From: a virus | Lineage: Duplodnaviria; Caudoviricetes | DNA: 64,000 nt | IMG/VR virus record: IMGVR_UViG_3300033463_000004 | Coordinates: 64,001-128,000 of that record | Reading direction: 5' to 3' (one strand) | Shown here: piece by piece, positions 5,643 to 16,695 of the stretch | Numbering within the stretch: the stretch's first letter is position 1 | Layout: each line of letters begins with the position of its first letter | Notes under the pieces: generated by a model | The model's input: only the letters and a program-made list of their open reading frames with translations | What the model was told of the DNA's origin: nothing | Databases searched by the model: none | Program-made: the position numbers and the translations under genes

Positions 5643-8264
5643 ATGCATGGAACACCAATTGATGAAAAATATCAACGGGCAATGGAATTTGCAAAACATT
5701 TCAAACATGAAAACAAAACATCAAGTATTTCAAATGTATACGTAATACAAGTGAAAGATCTTGATGGAAATGTCGTTGATGAAAAATATGGTATGAATTT
5801 GATGACAAATTACGGTATGTCGCAATATTTTGTATCTAAAGCTAACTGGCCGACAAATTTCTATATCGGTAATGGCTCTGGAACATTTAATCATACAACG
5901 AACGTCATACTTAGTCCTATTACAACGAACCCAGCAACAGTCACGTCAAGTTCAAAGAGTTATGCGTATCCTGTTTATTATGATTCATTATCCGGTGTTA
6001 TCACAACAACTGTGAAATTCCTTGAAGTGTATTTTAATTACAATATCGATGGAGTCACTGGACCAGTTGATATTTCTGAATACGGTATTGGAACTGCATA
6101 CAATGCATTATGGACACATTCATGGGTTTATAATAGTATTGGTGAAAAATCTACGGTTCGAAAAGATATTAATACACGAATTGATATTACAGTGTATTTA
6201 TGTATGTCTTATTCAACATCTATCATTGAAGATGGTTGGACTGCAGGCAAATCTATTTGTATCACCAATCCTTCCAGAATGTTTAATCGTACATCTGTTA
6301 CAATGGATGAACCAAACCTTTATACGTTCAGAAGAAGTGATTATTATGCAAGAACAAAATCCTATACATCTGGATATGCTGATAATGTTTACACTGTAAC
6401 TTCAAATATTTCTGAATTTACAATGTTACCAGCGGATCAATCTGATACAAACCAAAATGTTTATATTGATGGATTCATTTCATGGTGTGCTGGATTCAAT
6501 ATGTTCGAACGAGTCACAATGCCAACTGGTCATGAAGTTTCGTTCAGTGATGTTATTGGAATACCGATTGCATCAATTGCACATACATGGGACGGATTTG
6601 CACGTTCATTCGGACAACCCGGAACATATATCCCATTCACACAAGCAGACATTACTGCATCTTATACGTACAATTACAAGACTGGACAATTCTCTTGTCC
6701 GGATCATTTTGTAAATGATGCAAGAAAATGGTATAATGAAATGTCGTTCAGTACAGATTTTGCAACGACTGCGCGTTATACCAATAACAATGAAGTGTTA
6801 TCAATAAAACTATATCGAAATATCAATACTGAAGATCCTATTGTTGCAATCAGTTCTGCAAATACAACTGTGTATGCAACTGATTCATATTGGGATACTT
6901 CATCATGGAGTCGTATCGTAGATCTTTCATCGATACCTTCTCAATTACAAAACAAACGATACTGGCTGACAACCGATGACATCGCAATTACACCTGTTCG
7001 TGGCATTCAACCATTCGAATTTATTGCATCTGATGATGTAACGCATCATCCAACATTATTATTTGATAAACGTGAATACACGAGACAAGTTCAATTCACG
7101 ACATATGACAAAAGTCCTGATAAGAAATGGTTTATAATCGGATCAAAGATCTATATCGTAGCACGTGGTGACTTGGTTGTTACCTCATCAGGATCATATG
7201 CGATTGGATATAATAATTTGATTATGTATTACAATACTGGCGCAAATACCAATTATTTCTATGAAACAAATATTACAGAACAACCAGCACCAGTCCCAGT
7301 GCAAGTTACGACATTAGGATCTTTGCAGTTCAGATACTCTCATATCAGTGAATCAGAAAATGGATATGCGATTGCATCAGCAACATCAAATGTTACCATT
7401 AAATTTGATTTAACAGGTAGCTCAATTGTTCAAACGCAATTACCTGATTCTCTTGACGCTTGTTGCATATCGAAATCACAAAATTATGCGTATATTGATG
7501 CAACGAATTCACGTCGTGTATTCGTTAAGAAACTTTCAGATGATACAACTGTGAAACAGTTAGATATTCCTGTCAATTATGCTGCTCCAACTTGTATATT
7601 TGGTTGGAAAACTCATCTATATATCACTGATAATTCGACGTATGTGTTCTTATATGATACTGCAAACGATTCATTGACGGAATTATCAACAACAATTCCA
7701 CCAACTGAATATAGAAGATCTTCCAGAGATGGTAACAGTTATTGTCAATTTTCATCATGCTGTGATGAAGGAATGATACTTTATCGTGATAATACAGGAA
7801 CTTCGTATGCAGGTATTATTGTTATTACAGAAAATGATCCAACAACAATAACAGCATTAAATAATCTCAGTGATGGTAATACATCTGGATATATACGACA
7901 TAGATATTTTGATATCATTTCTGTAAACACGAATTCATTATTGATGGTATGTCATTTTGATAGCAGCGGTACAAATTACTATGGTTTTTCTGCAATAGAT
8001 ATCGGCCGATATTTACATGAAAACGTTGTAAATGTTGTCACATATGGCGGATCAAACAGATATCCATTTGCATTATTTGGAGAATTTTACGTTTGTCAGA
8101 ATGAAACATTTAGCGTTGCAAACTTAATGTATCATCGTTTGGTTGGAACAACGAAATGTGTTTCAACAGCAAATCACATCAAACATATATCCAATAAACG
8201 TTGGACAATGAGTGTTACAAATCTCGGTGGATGGAGTGGTTTACCACCCGGAAACAAACAGTGA
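5643..8264 (+). CDS. Tail/baseplate receptor-binding protein, paralog of 8807-12391
   Basis: Shares N-terminal 'N.Y++Q....DG.V..E.YG.NL.T..G', central 'D.YWD.S.WS...SSIP..LQNK.Y' and C-terminal 'GTT' blocks with 8807-12391. Confidence 0.7.
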   Translation: MHGTPIDEKYQRAMEFAKHFKHENKTSSISNVYVIQVKDLDGNVVDEKYGMNLMTNYGMSQYFVSKANWPTNFYIGNGSGTFNHTTNVILSPITTNPATVTSSSKSYAYPVYYDSLSGVITTTVKFLEVYFNYNIDGVTGPVDISEYGIGTAYNALWTHSWVYNSIGEKSTVRKDINTRIDITVYLCMSYSTSIIEDGWTAGKSICITNPSRMFNRTSVTMDEPNLYTFRRSDYYARTKSYTSGYADNVYTVTSNISEFTMLPADQSDTNQNVYIDGFISWCAGFNMFERVTMPTGHEVSFSDVIGIPIASIAHTWDGFARSFGQPGTYIPFTQADITASYTYNYKTGQFSCPDHFVNDARKWYNEMSFSTDFATTARYTNNNEVLSIKLYRNINTEDPIVAISSANTTVYATDSYWDTSSWSRIVDLSSIPSQLQNKRYWLTTDDIAITPVRGIQPFEFIASDDVTHHPTLLFDKREYTRQVQFTTYDKSPDKKWFIIGSKIYIVARGDLVVTSSGSYAIGYNNLIMYYNTGANTNYFYETNITEQPAPVPVQVTTLGSLQFRYSHISESENGYAIASATSNVTIKFDLTGSSIVQTQLPDSLDACCISKSQNYAYIDATNSRRVFVKKLSDDTTVKQLDIPVNYAAPTCIFGWKTHLYITDNSTYVFLYDTANDSLTELSTTIPPTEYRRSSRDGNSYCQFSSCCDEGMILYRDNTGTSYAGIIVITENDPTTITALNNLSDGNTSGYIRHRYFDIISVNTNSLLMVCHFDSSGTNYYGFSAIDIGRYLHENVVNVVTYGGSNRYPFALFGEFYVCQNETFSVANLMYHRLVGTTKCVSTANHIKHISNKRWTMSVTNLGGWSGLPPGNKQ

Positions 8265-8789: not shown

Positions 8790-8806
8790 AAGAAAGGGTG
8801 AATGAT

Positions 8807-11800
8807 ATGCATGAATTTGGAATTGCAAAAAAATCTATATATGATGAGCATCCTAAATTAAAAGAATTTGAAGAAAATTATAAGAAAACACATCCGGGTG
8901 TTGATATTAACACCAAAAATCTATATATCGTTCAATCTGTGAACCGTGATGGCGTCGTGACATCTGAACAATATGGTTTGAATCTTATAACAGACGCCGG
9001 ATTTGATCAAATTATCTCTAATTATTCACCTAGCTCTGAGACATTTAGAAAAGCAATACGTCTGTTAGAAGGTGTACCAATAGCCGAAGCTCCAACAGTA
9101 TTGACATCTACCATTCCGTCATATACACGAAGAATTCAAACATCAACCATGTCTGGTAATAATAATTATTATGCATTGCAATATAATTCTGAAACTGGTG
9201 TGATATCTCAAAGGATTAATCAATGGGTATGGGAATTTGATTATAATGTGACTGGATATTTACCAGATGGGACATCAGTTTCAATAGATAATGATTTTAC
9301 TGCAAATTGTCTTTATATGTATAATCCAGATTATCCCGACTGGTGTCCTACTGGAATAATATCAACATATGAAGCAGATGGTATGCCAGCTCCAATTATT
9401 AAACATCCAAACGAAAAATTATTTATAACATTTTATGCAACAGGATCTATTCATGAAGATGTTATAAATGATGCGTACGATGATGAAATATATTTTGCCG
9501 TTAATCCTGGAAAGATTTCTAATATTGCATGGGGTTATAGTCATTCTGGATATAATCGTGTTAATTCTCCTTTTGTGCATGCACAATGGTTAGGACCGGT
9601 TTATAAATCATATGCTTTGTCATCAGGAAGCACTAACACATATGTTGATATAAGTTGTAATGAGACTGGTCAACGATTTATCATGGGCAACGGTGAAGGA
9701 TATCGATATGGTCGTCAAAATATGACTTATGTTTTATTAGACCCGCGTGTTGCGTTTACCATGGTAGATTATCGATGGGGACATCGATATTATACCAGCT
9801 GGGATGATGCACATGTCATCAAATGTATATCGGTGGAACGTTTGGATACCCCAGAAGAATTATCAACAAATTTTGGATACACGAACAGAAATGACTCTTC
9901 ACAAATTTCAAATCTATTTGCATTGAAAGCATTTAACACACTTTACCCACTAGGAATTTTACCAGCAGCCGATTTCTCCATCACGTCCATCAAAGGATAT
10001 AATTACATATCGAAAGCCTTTGATATTGATATTTCATACATCAATAGACCTAATGCATATTATAATAACCCATTTATTACATCGGCTGGTATGGCAATCT
10101 CTGTAGCTGGTGCGCCCAGTGGTACATATTATTTATATATCAATCAGCGTGCAAAACAACTCAACAATGGTTTACAACCAGTACCGATTACTGGAATATC
10201 ATTGGACACATCAAGAACTGTTTATGTTGCAGATAAATATTGGGATTTTTCAACTTGGTCTATTGTGACAAATCCAAGTTCAATCCCACAAGCGTTACAA
10301 AACAAAAAGTATTTCATGTTGAAAGATGGTATAGCAATTATCACACCAACATATGATCAACAAGTACATGAATTGGATGTTGGTTCAGAATACACAGTAC
10401 TAAACACGCCCACAGATTCTATTCATGGATGGTATCGCGGATATAAAACATTACACAATCTGACAGACAATTGGATTCTTGTACAAGATTATTTGTTATT
10501 TATGGATCCAACAGGAAAAGATGTTCAATATAAATATAAACTCGAAGGTCCCGAATATGCTGTGTGGTCAAAAATATCTGACGCAGTATGGAATCAAGAT
10601 TATGCAAGCCTTTACATATATTCAAATGGTGAATATGTATTGAATACAAATCCGACATACAGTTCTGGAACAACGTACTACACAACGGCAATTGATCCAT
10701 ATACCATTAGATATAATTATGGTAATAAGATTCTTGTTGCGACGATGGTTACACGCGGTAACGATTCATATCCAGCAAAGGTAAGAATCTATACAATCAC
10801 ATCAGCATCATCTGCACCGACATATCAAGATATTACAATCGACACAAACACAACCGATCGGTCATATACTGGTCAATATACATTCTCTTCAAATGGATAT
10901 TTTGTTATCCAAGATGAACATACACATTGTGCAAACATTATTAAAATTTCCGATGGCACTGTTACAAAACTCGAGAATGTCAGTAATTGTTATGCATTGG
11001 AATATTCCAATAAATGTGTGTATTTCCGATATGGTTCATCACCGTTAACATGGGATGTTTACAATATGCAAACAAATACAGTTGAAGGTTCTTTTGTATT
11101 ACCGGATGAATATTCTAATGTCACATATATGTGCGGGTGGCATGAATATTTGTATTTGCAATCATATATCAATCCAAACTATTTTGTTCATATTATAAAT
11201 ACAAATGATTGTTCAATCCACATTGTCGATGGTATGACATTCAATAATCAATTCACATCATATAGGAGAAATAACAATTCAGTTGATTCTCGTTTATATC
11301 GTTTGAATCGAATTAATAACATAAAATTCCATTCGGATTTTATGATCATTGATTGTTTACCAATGAATCAATGGTATATGGATGATGTGTCTCCTAAATT
11401 TATTAAGTATACAGAACCTGAAAAAACATATTGGTTGTACAAATATGGCGATCGAAATGAACGTCAAGTTGATAACTTGTATGAAAAGAACCATTATTAT
11501 TGTACTACAGCACGATTAGGTTCAACAATTCTGGAAGTTCAACAATCAGTGTCTCAATCAAAATTATTATTAATTGATGTCGCTGGACGTTTTTCAGAAC
11601 GGTATGATGGTTCTGTTGATTTTGTTTCTAATTCAAATACCGATTGGCGGGCTGGTGTTCTTGATATAGGATATCGGATAGATAATCCTTCAGATGAACC
11701 TCTCAATGCGGTTTGTTATCATTGGAACAAAATTCAAATGGATAGTACATATGCGTCCGGTGGTATTGCATATTGGAAAAATGGAATTATCATATTTGAT

Positions 11801-12391
11801 ACTAATATGGCTGGTGTATGGTATCCTCTTGAGTGGTTTATCAACTTCAAGATTACAGGAACAACACGCACAATTCAAGCATACAATAATCCGAAGAAAA
11901 TTGGACATGCTTCCATGACGATGTTTTCAACAAACCGTGGAATAATTCAGCATACATCACCACCGACATCAACAGGCGATCTCCATTATGTATTTAAACA
12001 TGATTCATGGGGATATAGTGACTCAAATCAAAATAGTATATTCTGGGGAAAAATTCTAAAAGGTGAGATATTGGGACCATATGCTGCACAATATGATTTG
12101 TTAGATGGAGAATCATTATCAATCGAAATCACACCTGCAGCCGGATTTGAATTCTTATCCGGTACATTTTTATGGTGGATAGAAGAAAAGCAACTCAATT
12201 ATGACGCAAATGGTGATTATGTAAGTTATTCAAATAAATGGTCTTCCTCTGTGTGTAATGCAACTGACAGCATATCTGGTCCATCTCGTGACTTAACAAA
12301 CATTGGTATATGTATTGCAACAAACTCTAGCCAAATCACATGGTTAGAGCCAACATACATTCAATCAATCAGAATAACGAAATCTAGTTAA
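8807..12391 (+). CDS. Large tail/baseplate receptor-binding protein, paralog of 5643-8264 with extra C-terminal domain
   Basis: Shared blocks with the 5643 ORF; GAAAGGGTG RBS favours ATG 8807. Confidence 0.7.
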   Translation: MHEFGIAKKSIYDEHPKLKEFEENYKKTHPGVDINTKNLYIVQSVNRDGVVTSEQYGLNLITDAGFDQIISNYSPSSETFRKAIRLLEGVPIAEAPTVLTSTIPSYTRRIQTSTMSGNNNYYALQYNSETGVISQRINQWVWEFDYNVTGYLPDGTSVSIDNDFTANCLYMYNPDYPDWCPTGIISTYEADGMPAPIIKHPNEKLFITFYATGSIHEDVINDAYDDEIYFAVNPGKISNIAWGYSHSGYNRVNSPFVHAQWLGPVYKSYALSSGSTNTYVDISCNETGQRFIMGNGEGYRYGRQNMTYVLLDPRVAFTMVDYRWGHRYYTSWDDAHVIKCISVERLDTPEELSTNFGYTNRNDSSQISNLFALKAFNTLYPLGILPAADFSITSIKGYNYISKAFDIDISYINRPNAYYNNPFITSAGMAISVAGAPSGTYYLYINQRAKQLNNGLQPVPITGISLDTSRTVYVADKYWDFSTWSIVTNPSSIPQALQNKKYFMLKDGIAIITPTYDQQVHELDVGSEYTVLNTPTDSIHGWYRGYKTLHNLTDNWILVQDYLLFMDPTGKDVQYKYKLEGPEYAVWSKISDAVWNQDYASLYIYSNGEYVLNTNPTYSSGTTYYTTAIDPYTIRYNYGNKILVATMVTRGNDSYPAKVRIYTITSASSAPTYQDITIDTNTTDRSYTGQYTFSSNGYFVIQDEHTHCANIIKISDGTVTKLENVSNCYALEYSNKCVYFRYGSSPLTWDVYNMQTNTVEGSFVLPDEYSNVTYMCGWHEYLYLQSYINPNYFVHIINTNDCSIHIVDGMTFNNQFTSYRRNNNSVDSRLYRLNRINNIKFHSDFMIIDCLPMNQWYMDDVSPKFIKYTEPEKTYWLYKYGDRNERQVDNLYEKNHYYCTTARLGSTILEVQQSVSQSKLLLIDVAGRFSERYDGSVDFVSNSNTDWRAGVLDIGYRIDNPSDEPLNAVCYHWNKIQMDSTYASGGIAYWKNGIIIFDTNMAGVWYPLEWFINFKITGTTRTIQAYNNPKKIGHASMTMFSTNRGIIQHTSPPTSTGDLHYVFKHDSWGYSDSNQNSIFWGKILKGEILGPYAAQYDLLDGESLSIEITPAAGFEFLSGTFLWWIEEKQLNYDANGDYVSYSNKWSSSVCNATDSISGPSRDLTNIGICIATNSSQITWLEPTYIQSIRITKSS

Positions 12392-12406
12392 TAAATTCCG
12401 AAATTT

Positions 12407-12427
12407 CACATATATATGATTATTACG
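12407..12427 (+). promoter_or_regulatory. Putative phage early promoter, TATAT-N-ATT-N5-G
   Basis: CACATA-TATAT-G-ATT-ATTAC-G; same spacing at 28562, 31564 and 61286. Confidence 0.6.
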
Positions 12428-12644
12428 AACATGAGAGATGATGTGTTTCGGGATAAAGGTATCTAAACGGCCTCCCGAGTGTCCTCCCTATGACAGCGCA
12501 CAAGATTGCATCTCTCTGTTCGCAATAATAAATGCATGAATGAAAAACGAGTTCTGATATTTACAATCCATCGTACAGATGGACATGTCGTACGGACATG
12601 GTGAATTGATTGCTCGTATTTTCATTCATGTATTCATTTTTTTT
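12427..12644 (+). ncRNA. Putative two-domain structured non-coding RNA
   Basis: Two consecutive long closing stems (12426-12440/12509-12522 and 12531-12551/12613-12634), each enclosing two hairpins; promoter motif upstream and U-tract downstream; no credible ORF. Confidence 0.6.
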
Positions 12645-12652
12645 GATGATGA

Positions 12653-12682
12653 AATGATGTGGGGCTTTCGCCCCACATCATT
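12653..12682. terminator. GC-rich hairpin, probable bidirectional terminator
   Basis: aatgatgtggggc-tttc-gccccacatcatt between convergent units. Confidence 0.8.
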
Positions 12683-12690
12683 ATCATTCA

Positions 12691-15600
12691 TCATATCAGA
12701 TTTAAAACAATATTCGAATCAGACAATACGAACATTTCCGGAACATATCTTTCTAATTCATTCTTCGGCATATCATCCAATTCATCCCATCGTTGGACAA
12801 TCGCTTGATAATCAGCGTTCATATAATGTCCACCAATGATATTCTTCTGGTTGGTATACCAACCTTTGAATTTCAAATATGCAACATTAGGATGTTCTTC
12901 CAGTTGTTGGATCAATTGTGAAATGTAAATGTTATTATCCATCGATATCATATCAACTGGGGTATGTACAGTTGTGATGCGGTTGAAATATGATTTGATC
13001 ATTGTACGAATTTCATTCAATGTATTGGTTGATAAACCTGGATTATACAATTTCAAATCAAATTCGATTTGTACATCCAAATCTGGCCAGAATGTTGGTG
13101 GAGTGAGATTCTTATCAACATCCGCAACATAAGAATGCGGTAAACCATATGTTGCAATCAGTTTGCAATCAAGATAATTATTACCTTCCAAACGTTTGAA
13201 GATAACCGGCTCAATTGCTTTGTGAACTTGTGTAAATGCGGAAACAAACGATGCAAATACATCAGAGTTCATCAACTTTGATTGAACAAATGGAACGAGT
13301 TGAACTTCCATTGCACTGTTGACAGATGTTTGTGAGAAGATATCTTCAACTTCACTTGGATAGATTGAAATATTATTGTAGACACGGTCCCAATCAATGT
13401 CACCAGAATATTGTGACTCTATAATATTTGCTAGGGTCATTCTTAATTCTGTCATGTATCCAGTTGAAATATCAGGTACTTCAGGATTGCCCGCATAAAT
13501 CGTGATAATATTATCCAAAGTTGCATTGCAATCGGAAGCAATCATTTGGATATCATGGAATGTCAAACCAGAATCATCAATCGTTCCAGTAATGATATGA
13601 TATGCATACTGTTTAATGGTATACATGTTATTCACATTCGGATCATATTCACACAGTTTCATCAAAGAATCAAATGCAGCCATCTGAACTTCTGAAGGTT
13701 GTTGATATTCACCAAACTTAACAACACTTCTCATTTCTTTCAGTTCTTGAATAAATGAGAAATCATCAACATTCCATCTATCTTGCAAACGGAATCCCTT
13801 GAATGACTCATCACCTTCAATCGGTGATACCAATGTTGGATCGGTTGATTTAAACAGAATATAGATCGTTAATTCTGGATATGTCGCATCAATTGTTACA
13901 ATCTTTGAATCAACTGCAGACACCCAAGAACCACCACCGTATTCTGTTGATGCAATTTTGATGCGATTATCGACATCAACCATTTTATTCAATGGATAAA
14001 TTTGTGCATCAAATCGAATACTACCATCAGATTCAATCTGAACTGGTTCCATTTCAACGCGACCAGTGACAACACCATCAACCTTTGCTTCCAAAACAAT
14101 ACGCATATTGTTTTCTTCCATTGCAAGTTGTTCTGATTCAAAATAGAACATCGGAACATTCGTATTTTCCAATAATACAGACAATGGCATTTTATAATAT
14201 GCAACAGCCGCTTCAGATGCAGTCGGTCTCATATCAGCATAGAATACAACACCATTTCCTGATACATCATTCAGATTAAATGTGACTGTTCCATCATTAT
14301 TATCGATTGGAGTATATGGTGTATAAATATTTGCAGAATTTGCAATCTGATATTGAACCACAACACCGTCATCGTATTTCAACTGGAAATATATAGTGTC
14401 TTGATAACTCTTTCCAATACGATACAAACGTGTTTCACCATATTTGGTTAAACTTGTGCTGAATACTTCATCAGATGTTGTCATGGAAACAAGTTTACCA
14501 GTAGGCTGATCATCTTTCAGACGGAGTTCATAATAATTCTGGGATGCGACACGTTTGAATGAAATCGGATCGTCATCAACGACATTTGGATATACATGTA
14601 TATCAGTATCTCCTGTTACTTTGACAGCTTCCCATGGACCGTGTTCACCCCATAAAGCATCCGTACCAAGAACTTGCTTAAAACTACTGCTGACAGTAAT
14701 TGGATATTCTTTTTTCTCACTACCAGAATAGTCCTCAATTCTGAGACCGCGCAAGTTCCACATACCATCAGATACACGAGTCTTTTCAGTTACACACAAA
14801 TATGTCTCTGATGGATTGAAAACGACATATTGTTGCTTTGGATCCTGAATCAGAATTGGAATCATCTTTGCATATAGATCAACAGGTTTTACAAAGTAAT
14901 TCCACATGATGTCTGTGAATGTCGGAGGTTCTGTTCCATTTCTGAAACGTTTTACAAAATCAGAACCAATGTAAGATGGTGCTTGGTTCGGAATAATAAC
15001 TGTCTCGATATTATAGTAATCCTTTTGATATGTACGAATGATATGTACAAATGAAGGTGTACCGTGATAAATAATACTCTTATCTTCATTACCAAGAATT
15101 GTATCTTGATATTCAAATGGAGTATTCACAATCGAAACCGTTGTCGTTTCATTAATCCACGGATTGAAGTATCCAATTGCAAACGGATACTTCTGAATAC
15201 GAATACCGAATGGATTTGCAAATAAGAAATCATCACCAACATTCACCGCAGTTGAAGCCGTTTCGACTTGCTCATTGGAATTCACAACCAATGGTTTTAC
15301 AGTATAACGATTGGATTCCTTGTTTGCATATACCCATGCCCAACCAGGTGGGATAATGATTTCATTTCCATTTGCAGAAATGATGTTATCATTACTATTG
15401 TAAAGAACTCGATATGGAATCTGCGCGTGTAATGTATTCGTACGATATACTTCACCATCTGGATCAGTCAACGCAATAAATCCACTCCAAATTCTACCCC
15501 ATGGATCATCTCTTCGTTTAAAGAAGAATGGATATAGAATTCGTTTGAAAAAGAATGTCTTAAACCATTCATAGATATCATGATCTGATGAAATCACATT

Positions 15601-16695
15601 TGCAGTATTATATGCTTCAATGGTCTCACGACGCGTTGTCTCATTTGTTCCAATATTTGTACCAGCCTGGCTTCCAGACATAACAAACGCAGATTTTGTA
15701 ACGTTTCCATTGTTTGTGTACTTGTTTGTCGATGTAATAATTGAAACAGATTCTTCTGTTGTGAATGATGAAAAGTTTGCAGCTTCACCATGACATGTAT
15801 AGATTGTCACAACAAATGACGAATTCAGTTGTGGCACAAAATAACGATTACCATTCATTTGGAATTTAAAACGAATTGTCTGCGGCGAATCCATGATGTA
15901 ATGTACGTACGGAAGTTGATCCTTTACATCCGAATGGATTGCAAGAATATGATCACGATCAAGATATTGCTCGTTACCATCACCATCAATATATTTGATA
16001 TCAAATCCTGCAATATGATTTTGACATGTGATGACATAATCATCATTTGGAATTCCATTTGTCATATTATTGACAATTGTGTGAGTTTGTCTTTCAAACT
16101 CAGACATTGTTACAAATATATGCAACCATTCTGATGATGTTCTGTAAAGAATATATGGTTTTTTGTTTACTGCAATCGAATTTTGTTCATCTGTATTAAT
16201 GTATTGAACATTCCAAACTGGATTCTCCGGATTGGTATATTGAATCAATACATCATAATCCAATGAATAAATCGAACCATTTGCAAGATTAATTTTCGTA
16301 TTTTTATCTAATACGAATTCGTACAAATTTCTATGCTGCGGGTTTTCTTTTGCATTTTTGAACAAATCCGACAACTTCAATTCGATCATAAAATTACATA
16401 CAGACGGAATTGCATATGAATAACCGATGTTGAAGATTGCTGCATTTGCATAAATGGAATCCGATAAAACTGCTTTTGTGATGAAAGATTCATTCAGATA
16501 AAATGATGAAGTAAATGCCAAATTTTCTAATGCTTGCGACATATATTCAGATACAACAGAGAAGAAACCACTGTTCAAATTGTTCAATGGTATATCATGG
16601 AATACACGTGGCATCAAAACATTCGCAATATACTTTTTGATTTGTGAATCATCCGAATAATTATTCAACACAATATTCGTGTCTTTCGTTGCCAT
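12691..16695 (-). CDS. Baseplate wedge protein (T4 gp6/baseplate-J-like, jumbo phage type)
   Basis: N-terminal 'ESFITKA...SIY..A....Y', 'TIYTCHGEAANF' and C-terminal 'IYISQLIQQLE....V.Y+.F' are typical of wedge proteins; AGGAGG RBS. Confidence 0.7.
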   Translation of the reverse strand: MATKDTNIVLNNYSDDSQIKKYIANVLMPRVFHDIPLNNLNSGFFSVVSEYMSQALENLAFTSSFYLNESFITKAVLSDSIYANAAIFNIGYSYAIPSVCNFMIELKLSDLFKNAKENPQHRNLYEFVLDKNTKINLANGSIYSLDYDVLIQYTNPENPVWNVQYINTDEQNSIAVNKKPYILYRTSSEWLHIFVTMSEFERQTHTIVNNMTNGIPNDDYVITCQNHIAGFDIKYIDGDGNEQYLDRDHILAIHSDVKDQLPYVHYIMDSPQTIRFKFQMNGNRYFVPQLNSSFVVTIYTCHGEAANFSSFTTEESVSIITSTNKYTNNGNVTKSAFVMSGSQAGTNIGTNETTRRETIEAYNTANVISSDHDIYEWFKTFFFKRILYPFFFKRRDDPWGRIWSGFIALTDPDGEVYRTNTLHAQIPYRVLYNSNDNIISANGNEIIIPPGWAWVYANKESNRYTVKPLVVNSNEQVETASTAVNVGDDFLFANPFGIRIQKYPFAIGYFNPWINETTTVSIVNTPFEYQDTILGNEDKSIIYHGTPSFVHIIRTYQKDYYNIETVIIPNQAPSYIGSDFVKRFRNGTEPPTFTDIMWNYFVKPVDLYAKMIPILIQDPKQQYVVFNPSETYLCVTEKTRVSDGMWNLRGLRIEDYSGSEKKEYPITVSSSFKQVLGTDALWGEHGPWEAVKVTGDTDIHVYPNVVDDDPISFKRVASQNYYELRLKDDQPTGKLVSMTTSDEVFSTSLTKYGETRLYRIGKSYQDTIYFQLKYDDGVVVQYQIANSANIYTPYTPIDNNDGTVTFNLNDVSGNGVVFYADMRPTASEAAVAYYKMPLSVLLENTNVPMFYFESEQLAMEENNMRIVLEAKVDGVVTGRVEMEPVQIESDGSIRFDAQIYPLNKMVDVDNRIKIASTEYGGGSWVSAVDSKIVTIDATYPELTIYILFKSTDPTLVSPIEGDESFKGFRLQDRWNVDDFSFIQELKEMRSVVKFGEYQQPSEVQMAAFDSLMKLCEYDPNVNNMYTIKQYAYHIITGTIDDSGLTFHDIQMIASDCNATLDNIITIYAGNPEVPDISTGYMTELRMTLANIIESQYSGDIDWDRVYNNISIYPSEVEDIFSQTSVNSAMEVQLVPFVQSKLMNSDVFASFVSAFTQVHKAIEPVIFKRLEGNNYLDCKLIATYGLPHSYVADVDKNLTPPTFWPDLDVQIEFDLKLYNPGLSTNTLNEIRTMIKSYFNRITTVHTPVDMISMDNNIYISQLIQQLEEHPNVAYLKFKGWYTNQKNIIGGHYMNADYQAIVQRWDELDDMPKNELERYVPEMFVLSDSNIVLNLI

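Follow-up and report, generated by a model that had tools for sequence, protein, structure and literature searches.

The window analysed here is a 64,000-nucleotide stretch of DNA, bases 64001-128000 of a 262,694-bp IMG/VR virus record (98% complete, 37% G+C) from an uncultured AR9/phiKZ-like jumbo phage. Its open reading frames (ORFs) 8798..12391 (+, 1197 aa) and 12691..16695 (-, 1334 aa) converge on a 299-nt gap, and in this gap sits the RNA gene that is the subject of this report. Folded as a whole, over 304 nt, the gap does far better than its shuffles (z = -9.6) and resolves into three units: domain 1; domain 2 with the run of eight U residues (U8) behind it; and a G+C-rich hairpin (Table 1). 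Behind an early-type promoter, the two domains and U8 form a stand-alone, single-copy, promoter-to-terminator cassette of 218 nt (~12427-12644), in which domain 2 and U8 are the RNA's intrinsic terminator. There is good support for a genuine gene here that is autonomous and encodes a structured non-coding RNA.

Structure and covariation

A preliminary description of this DNA, made from its letters alone, had proposed an unannotated structured RNA at 12427-12522. All of the pairings that it listed are present, and RNAfold returns exactly that fold (-31.5 kcal/mol, z = -3.0, equalled by 2 of 200 shuffles); the fold of the opposite strand is weaker (z = -2.2). In the closing helix P1, cGAACA-U-GAGAGAUG (12426-12440) pairs with CAUCUCUC-UGUUCg (12509-12522), and UCGGGA (12448-12453) pairs with UCCCGA (12474-12479) in the hairpin P3.

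The fold goes beyond chance because ten homologous RNAs retain it with compensatory changes. A covariance model (CM) of domain 1 was iterated from the window fold (R1 to R2) and then used to align 11 sequences, the window copy and its ten homologues, all from related metagenomic phages; the single-sequence model R1 had reached the closest relatives only. In the resulting alignment 92.8% of cells are paired, compared to 69% in shuffles and 34-57% with slid partners, and 23 of 32 pairs are compensatory, with none of 500 shuffles reaching any of these measures. Compensatory pairs make up 5 of 7 in P3a and 3 of 3 in P3b. P4 is the only helix without covariation (0 of 4 pairs); it is found in 4-5 sequences, is missing in the homologue L045 and is replaced in architectures B and C, which are described below. 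Domain 2 was aligned in 10 sequences with model R3, this CM alignment replacing one by MAFFT and RNAalifold that was misaligned; 88.6% of its cells are paired, compared to 31-47% in slid controls, and 32 of 41 pairs are compensatory. On this comparative evidence, both domains are shown to be maintained by compensatory evolution in related phages.

The alignments also favour the plus strand. Some 18 G.U cells in the domain 1 alignment become A.C mismatches on the other strand, and the plus strand outscores the other with both models (120.7 versus 10.8 bits for domain 1, 124.5 versus 38.1 bits for R3). Against Rfam 15, the window had no match that reached the gathering score, 12300-12800 had none of relevance at E<=10, and eight loci holding eight copies (that of the window and seven homologues) had none at E<=1; a tRNA/tmRNA search found none. 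The proposal of an unannotated structured RNA is thus upheld, in that the element holds no protein-coding ORF, covaries in related phages and matches no Rfam family.

Table 1. Coordinates of the RNA cassette and its flanking hairpin, in window positions
Feature	Position	Strand	Description
Early (virion RNA polymerase type) promoter	12404..12426	+	TTTCACATATATATGAT-TATTAC, then G(+1)
Domain 1	12427..12522	+	Multi-helix junction closed by P1, beginning at the predicted +1; minimum free energy fold and CM alignment
P1 5' strand	12427..12440 (12427-12431 + 12433-12440)	+	Pairs with 12509-12521; 12/13 pairs changed on both sides
P1 3' strand	12509..12521	+	CM alignment
P2 5' strand	12442..12446	+	Pairs with 12498-12502; 3/5 pairs compensatory
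P3 hairpin	12447..12479	+	P3a 12447-12453/12473-12479; P3b 12458-12460/12470-12472; loop L3 12461-12469 (AUCUAAACG)
P4 hairpin	12480..12495	+	UGUC (12480-12483) / GACA (12492-12495), loop CUCCCUAU
J2/1 heptamer AGAUUGC	12503..12509	+	Mostly unpaired; invariant in 11/11 sequences
Linker between domains	12523..12530	+	A/U-rich, single-stranded; gap fold
Domain 2	12531..12634	+	22-bp basal stem enclosing twin hairpins Ha and Hb
Ha	12567-12583	+	Loop GUACA
Hb	12584-12600	+	Loop GUACG
U8 run	12637..12644	+	At least 7 T after domain 2 in every homologue
Second G+C-rich hairpin	12645..12693	.	Outside the RNA, bounds the cassette; alone in relatives lacking the RNA

Promoter and transcription unit

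The sequence at 12404-12427 reads TTTCACATATATATGATTATTAC-G and is one of ~15 copies of a motif in the 262-kb genome, with the consensus TTTCATAT(A/G)TATAT(T/A)ATTA(T/A)TA(T/C)G. In the Bacillus jumbo phage AR9, the mapped early promoter is AAATATATATTAT-(6N)-G+1 and is read by the injected virion RNA polymerase (RNAP) (PMC5312081). The window sequence at 12408-12427, ACATATATATGAT-TATTAC-G, agrees with 11 of 13 AR9 consensus positions and has the right spacing and the G, which places it among AR9/phiKZ-type promoters. The predicted +1 is therefore G12427, the first base of helix P1, in agreement with the earlier placement of the start near the G of a promoter motif. Further points of likeness to the early units of AR9 and phiKZ are the extended AT-rich form of the promoter, ATATATAT(T/G)AT-(6N)-G+1, with no -35 element (PMC5312081), the two RNAP beta-like genes, and the many motif copies ahead of non-structural genes. 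The early promoter is retained upstream of all ten homologues.

The copy at 12404 alone lacks a downstream Shine-Dalgarno (SD) sequence and ORF; all the others of the ~15 copies in the genome precede a strong SD and an ORF. A 33-aa ORF at 12438 has no SD and has no start codon in the homologue L032, and between the window, L032 and L026 the AUG in CUAUGA stands in three different frames relative to AGAUUGC, from which we conclude that the unit is non-coding. No co-oriented gene that a riboswitch or cis-acting leader could regulate lies downstream, where the RNA runs into its terminator and then the convergent gene. At four loci (L044, L046, L047 and L057) another, divergent gene lies upstream and the cassette is intact; it is therefore autonomous.

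An early unit without an ORF is unusual for this phage type, given what has been mapped in its relatives. In AR9, whose annotation comprises 292 ORFs and one tRNA gene, the 159 mapped start sites were placed upstream of annotated genes (PMC5312081), whereas the promoter described here precedes an ORF-less structured RNA, and in phiKZ a differential RNA sequencing (dRNA-seq) study was unable to confirm any early phage small RNA (sRNA) (PMC8244752).

Distribution among related phages

Homologues were sought with the 1334-aa neighbour as bait, which has 262 relatives in metagenomic protein space. Loci around these relatives were fetched from IMG/VR, ENA and Logan assemblies, and IMG/VR and JGI metagenomes were scanned with promoter-plus-motif patterns. 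The ten homologous RNAs are those of L032 (=L004), L041, L096, L042, L045, L044 (=L003/L018), L046, L047, L057 and L026. L096 was the one new homologue yielded by the metagenome pattern scan, and a second IMG/VR scan yielded none; seven of the loci came via the neighbouring protein alone, so the RNA motifs were no search criterion for those. All ten have the early promoter, a P1 that begins at +1, the heptamer AGAUUGC, and a branched domain 2 with at least 7 T in a row behind it. One candidate homologue, L009, was rejected: it shares the promoter and AGATTGC, yet represents a different 200-nt leader of a 94-aa gene.

Three architectures of domain 1 can be distinguished. In A, P1-P2-P3-P4 are found in the window, L032, L041, L096, L042 and L026, with L045 lacking P4; in B (L044, L046), P3 is accompanied by a different hairpin, P5; and in C (L047, L057) there is no P3. 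P1, P2, the AGAUUGC between P2 and P1, and domain 2 are common to all of them.

The RNA is present in 8 of 8 examined loci where the neighbouring protein is at least 64% identical to that of the window. Where identity is 62% or less (L019-L025, L028-L040, L048, L049, L058) the RNA is missing, and the convergent genes share the G+C hairpin only. The exception is L026, with the RNA present at 50% neighbour identity. The genome of L026 shares blocks of 88-100% identical proteins with the source phage, and the presence of the RNA despite the low identity suggests exchange. Model R2 found one copy in the source genome and none in seven further related jumbo-phage genomes that were searched in full, of which five are at least 89% complete.

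Conserved unpaired elements

Several unpaired elements are conserved in the RNA. AGAUUGC has an unpaired probability of 0.62-0.94 across the 11 sequences. Wherever P3 exists (nine sequences), its loop contains UCUAA, and in four lineages the loop reads UUGUCUAAUC. In domain 2, a strict search found a C-GNACR-G pentaloop in 10 of 11 homologues, carried by stems that differ in sequence, with two such loops in the closest relatives; L026 has GUACA inside a longer loop instead. Complementarity between L3 and the junction is limited to the 4-nt AGAU:RUCU, which is nearly invariant and is missing in L047 and L057; in a structural model, the UCUAA core can form a 4-bp AGAU:RUCU pseudoknot with the junction. 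The definition of the family by 11 sequences, two covarying domains and four invariant unpaired elements is sufficient for RNA databases.

Proposed function

Our preferred reading, which we advance tentatively, is that the cassette encodes a trans-acting folded RNA that would be made by the virion RNAP and would bind a protein as a decoy or scaffold. The injected polymerase would make the RNA immediately after infection, and the 5'-terminal helix and the 3' hairpin would stabilise it. Its action in trans would be that of a folded particle rather than of a linear antisense: the invariant unpaired nucleotides, namely the junction AGAUUGC, the UCUAA core of the P3 loop and the one or two C-GNACR-G pentaloops in domain 2, would be offered to a protein of the host or the phage, and the RNA would sequester or scaffold that protein. 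We read the RNA as a folded particle because its helices drift freely while four separate unpaired elements stay fixed, because loops of one form occupy different stems, because the 5' end is sealed in a helix, because searches in the phage found no base-pairing target for any unpaired segment, and because the cassette has been gained and lost within one phage subgroup. If made from the virion-polymerase promoter, a conserved ORF-less RNA would be the first product of infection that needs no translation, and might on that account serve the earliest step in taking over the host or evading its defences.

Protein-sequestering RNAs of the CsrB/RsmZ type and the boxB elements of lambda and P22, with their GNRA-like pentaloops, offer a comparison. 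They likewise carry loops of the same form on varying stems, and GNACA can be read as a GNR(N)A pentaloop. Unlike in those systems, only one or two such loops occur here, and the second ends in G; GGA is unconserved, so the RNA has no CsrA-type site.

Several observations weigh against this proposal. The AGAU:RUCU pseudoknot is without covariation because both of its sides are nearly invariant, and P3 is absent in L047 and L057, so the P3 loop is not universally essential. Gene content gives little guidance to a protein partner: 38 genes are shared by the two near-complete RNA-bearing genomes searched, G006 and G008, and occur in no more than one of five genomes lacking the RNA, and the 27 of them that were scanned have no informative Pfam domains. 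This co-occurrence is also confounded by relatedness, as the RNA-bearing genomes form simply a related or recombining group. The paired percentages given above are inflated by the fitting of the alignments to the models and by the relatedness of the sequences; pair-type counts and slid controls are the more robust measures. Finally, an invariant single-stranded element of 7 nt also resembles the seed of an sRNA.

The main rival explanation takes up this last point. In it, AGAUUGC would be the seed of a base-pairing sRNA, possibly helped by the P3 loop, that regulates a conserved host mRNA or other host RNA in trans. This is a serious contender, unlikely on balance, and it draws on the invariance and mostly unpaired state of the heptamer in 11 of 11 sequences and on a build that is usual for sRNAs, in which a separate promoter, a linker rich in A/U and a U-tailed terminator hairpin come together. 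The searches for a target speak against it. The complement GCAATCT occurs 44 times in the phage genome, compared to a rough expectation of ~32 for a random 7-mer, and none of these sites lies at a ribosome-binding site or at the same position in all four RNA-bearing genomes. Against early 5' leaders, 147 of 200 shuffles of AGAUUGC did as well, and the best of the four unpaired segments was equalled by 15 of 200 shuffles, which is not significant after four tests. Seven nucleotides within a multi-helix junction would be an unusual seed, and the RNA has more conserved unpaired elements than a single seed requires. A possible ribosomal target was considered and rejected. The P3 loop of the window is perfectly antisense over 9 nt to the universal 16S rRNA 790-loop segment GGAUUAGAUACC, which we verified in 120 genomes, and the common loop UUGUCUAAUC gives 9 bp; shuffled loops match the 5.4-kb rRNA operon equally well in 94-286 of 300 trials (31-95%), and the complementarity is therefore treated as coincidence.

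To a further proposal we assign a low probability, namely that the RNA would be an early host-takeover or anti-defence factor consisting of RNA only. The injected polymerase would produce it as a folded decoy ahead of all phage proteins, and by imitating a host RNA substrate its junction pocket and GNACR hairpins would put a host protein out of action. That protein would be one peculiar to the hosts of this phage subgroup; candidates are a nuclease, a ribosome factor, or a defence that is guided by RNA or senses it. This would account for the early promoter, for the gain and loss of the RNA as a cassette, and for its confinement to a set of phages that also have at least 24 accessory genes in common.

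The remaining explanations are each less likely than a folded protein-binding RNA. A ligand-binding or catalytic RNA is a doubtful one, in which domain 1 would be an aptamer-like junction (for example, a small-molecule sponge) or a ribozyme, and domain 2 would be a module for structure or termination. The multi-helix junction, with invariant junction and loop nucleotides and a terminator behind it, does have the build of a riboswitch aptamer. However, there is no downstream gene to regulate, Rfam has no riboswitch or ribozyme match even at E<=10, and P3 and P4 are each dispensable in some homologues, which would be unusual for a binding pocket.

It is rather less probable again that the element acts only in cis, as an elaborate terminator or insulator between convergent late operons or as a 3'-UTR (untranslated region) stabiliser of the upstream operon. 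The location between convergent genes fits this explanation, as does the fact that the upstream 1197-aa gene of the window has no terminator of its own before domain 2. Against it, a conserved promoter belongs to the RNA itself and puts +1 on the first P1 base, the cassette stays complete at loci with a divergent upstream gene, and relatives lacking the RNA end both operons with a single G+C hairpin; the conserved loops and junction play no part in termination.

The preliminary description had proposed that the RNA is an early phage sRNA of the RsaE/RoxS type, in which exposed CCUCCC or UCCC motifs would block ribosome-binding sites by anti-SD pairing. We judge this quite improbable. The stand-alone RNA and its early-type promoter were confirmed, and CCTCCC does occur twice, at 12471-12476 and 12483-12488; the CCUCCC motifs failed as conserved working parts. 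Several observations had made the idea attractive. The phage genes have strong GGAGG-type SDs, the window holds four CCTCCC on both strands together, and its only two plus-strand copies both lie in domain 1, 12 nt apart. The second copy lies in the P4 loop and is exposed in the window RNA (unpaired probability 0.79-0.91), and six of the 11 sequences, but no more, have an exposed CUCC or UCCC in a CU-rich stretch behind GUGU. Like RsaE/RoxS and other C-rich sRNAs of Bacillota (RF01820), the RNA is small and stand-alone and has a terminator.

Conservation tells against these motifs. The first copy forms the 3' strand of P3b/P3a, with an unpaired probability of 0.04 in the window and 0.00-0.09 in every homologue that has it. 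The second is replaced by CCAAC, CCAAAC or CUCAC in the three closest relatives (L032, L041 and L096) and by UCUCUC in L042, and it is absent from L045, which lacks P4, so that two or more exposed and conserved C-rich motifs are not found. With motif 1 paired everywhere and motif 2 unconserved, the anti-SD motifs thus fall outside the conserved core. Duplex scans of four phage genomes found no SD complementarity kept across them; the top matches of the CU-rich segment to translation-initiation regions were unrelated small ORFs, with no orthologous target shared among the genomes scanned. In addition, the RNA matches neither the RsaE model nor any other sRNA family in Rfam, and it differs from RsaE/RoxS in being phage-encoded, twice as long and folded into a junction rather than a row of hairpins. 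The CCUCCC motifs would be at most an auxiliary, lineage-specific feature, which corrects a tempting C-rich anti-SD reading of them.

Least likely by far is a structural or assembly RNA for virion morphogenesis like the prohead RNA (pRNA) of phi29, which resembles the RNA described here in its two domains, its early promoter, a domain 1 junction closed by pairing of the 5' end, a fold kept while sequence drifts and, for the present RNA, a locus inside a structural gene cluster, but RF00044 has no match, no covarying intermolecular loop-loop complements are found, the RNA is patchy within its own clade and missing from the seven related jumbo genomes searched whole despite shared structural genes, and the nearest cultured relatives are of a different phage type, the phiKZ-like jumbo myoviruses, a group for which no need of a packaging RNA is known.

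Neighbouring genes and related loci

The genes around the RNA locus are virion-type and include those for the major head protein, a virion structural protein and very large tail-like proteins. The genome has two separate Rpb2_6 (RNAP beta-like) matches, one of them above the Pfam cut-off, and is classed with phages that have a multisubunit RNAP on the strength of these two beta-like matches. The sole match of the 1334-aa protein is PHROG 18960, a family without assigned function, and it has no Pfam domain despite its 262 metagenomic relatives; it is a widespread uncharacterised jumbo-phage structural protein. An alignment of 18 sequences at 51-79% identity has many invariant columns. Its nearest cultured relatives, ~23% identical, are in phiKZ-like Staphylococcus jumbo phages and Yersinia phiR1-37, and a nucleotide search against cultured phages gave no match. 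The G+C-rich hairpin that bounds the cassette is the terminator of the convergent 1334-aa gene.

The source genome (G000) at 205.5-216.1 kb shares a block of ~8 genes with G008, with proteins 88-100% identical, yet the 1334-aa proteins of the two are only 50% identical. By this comparison, the block indicates recent recombination between divergent jumbo phages.

The position downstream of the 1334-aa gene is occupied differently in other phages. In L048 (5560-5905, minus strand), where the neighbouring protein is 61% identical, it holds a G+C-rich non-coding insert of 346 nt (-152 kcal/mol, z = -4.4) without a match in Rfam, and the slot seems to be a landing site for different RNA cassettes. 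In L031 (~6790-7190, minus strand) the RNA is replaced at this slot by an early promoter that drives a small ORF, which has a strong SD and is preceded by a short leader hairpin.

L009 (3130-3393, minus strand; G001 ~178260-178820), from a related jumbo phage that lacks the RNA, has the same early promoter followed by a different, multi-branched RNA of ~200 nt. This RNA has a perfect 15-bp closing helix from +1 (-69.8 kcal/mol) and may be a cis-regulatory leader; the ORF downstream of it, of 94 aa, is Cys-rich (zinc-ribbon-like) and occurs in that genome only.

A hairpin of unrelated sequence lies nearly always within a few bases of +1 at the ~15 motif copies of G000 (for example, window 12404 and genome positions 36699, 61304, 174517, 245540 and, on the minus strand, 222253). 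Such hairpins could shield the 5' ends of early transcripts from exonuclease.
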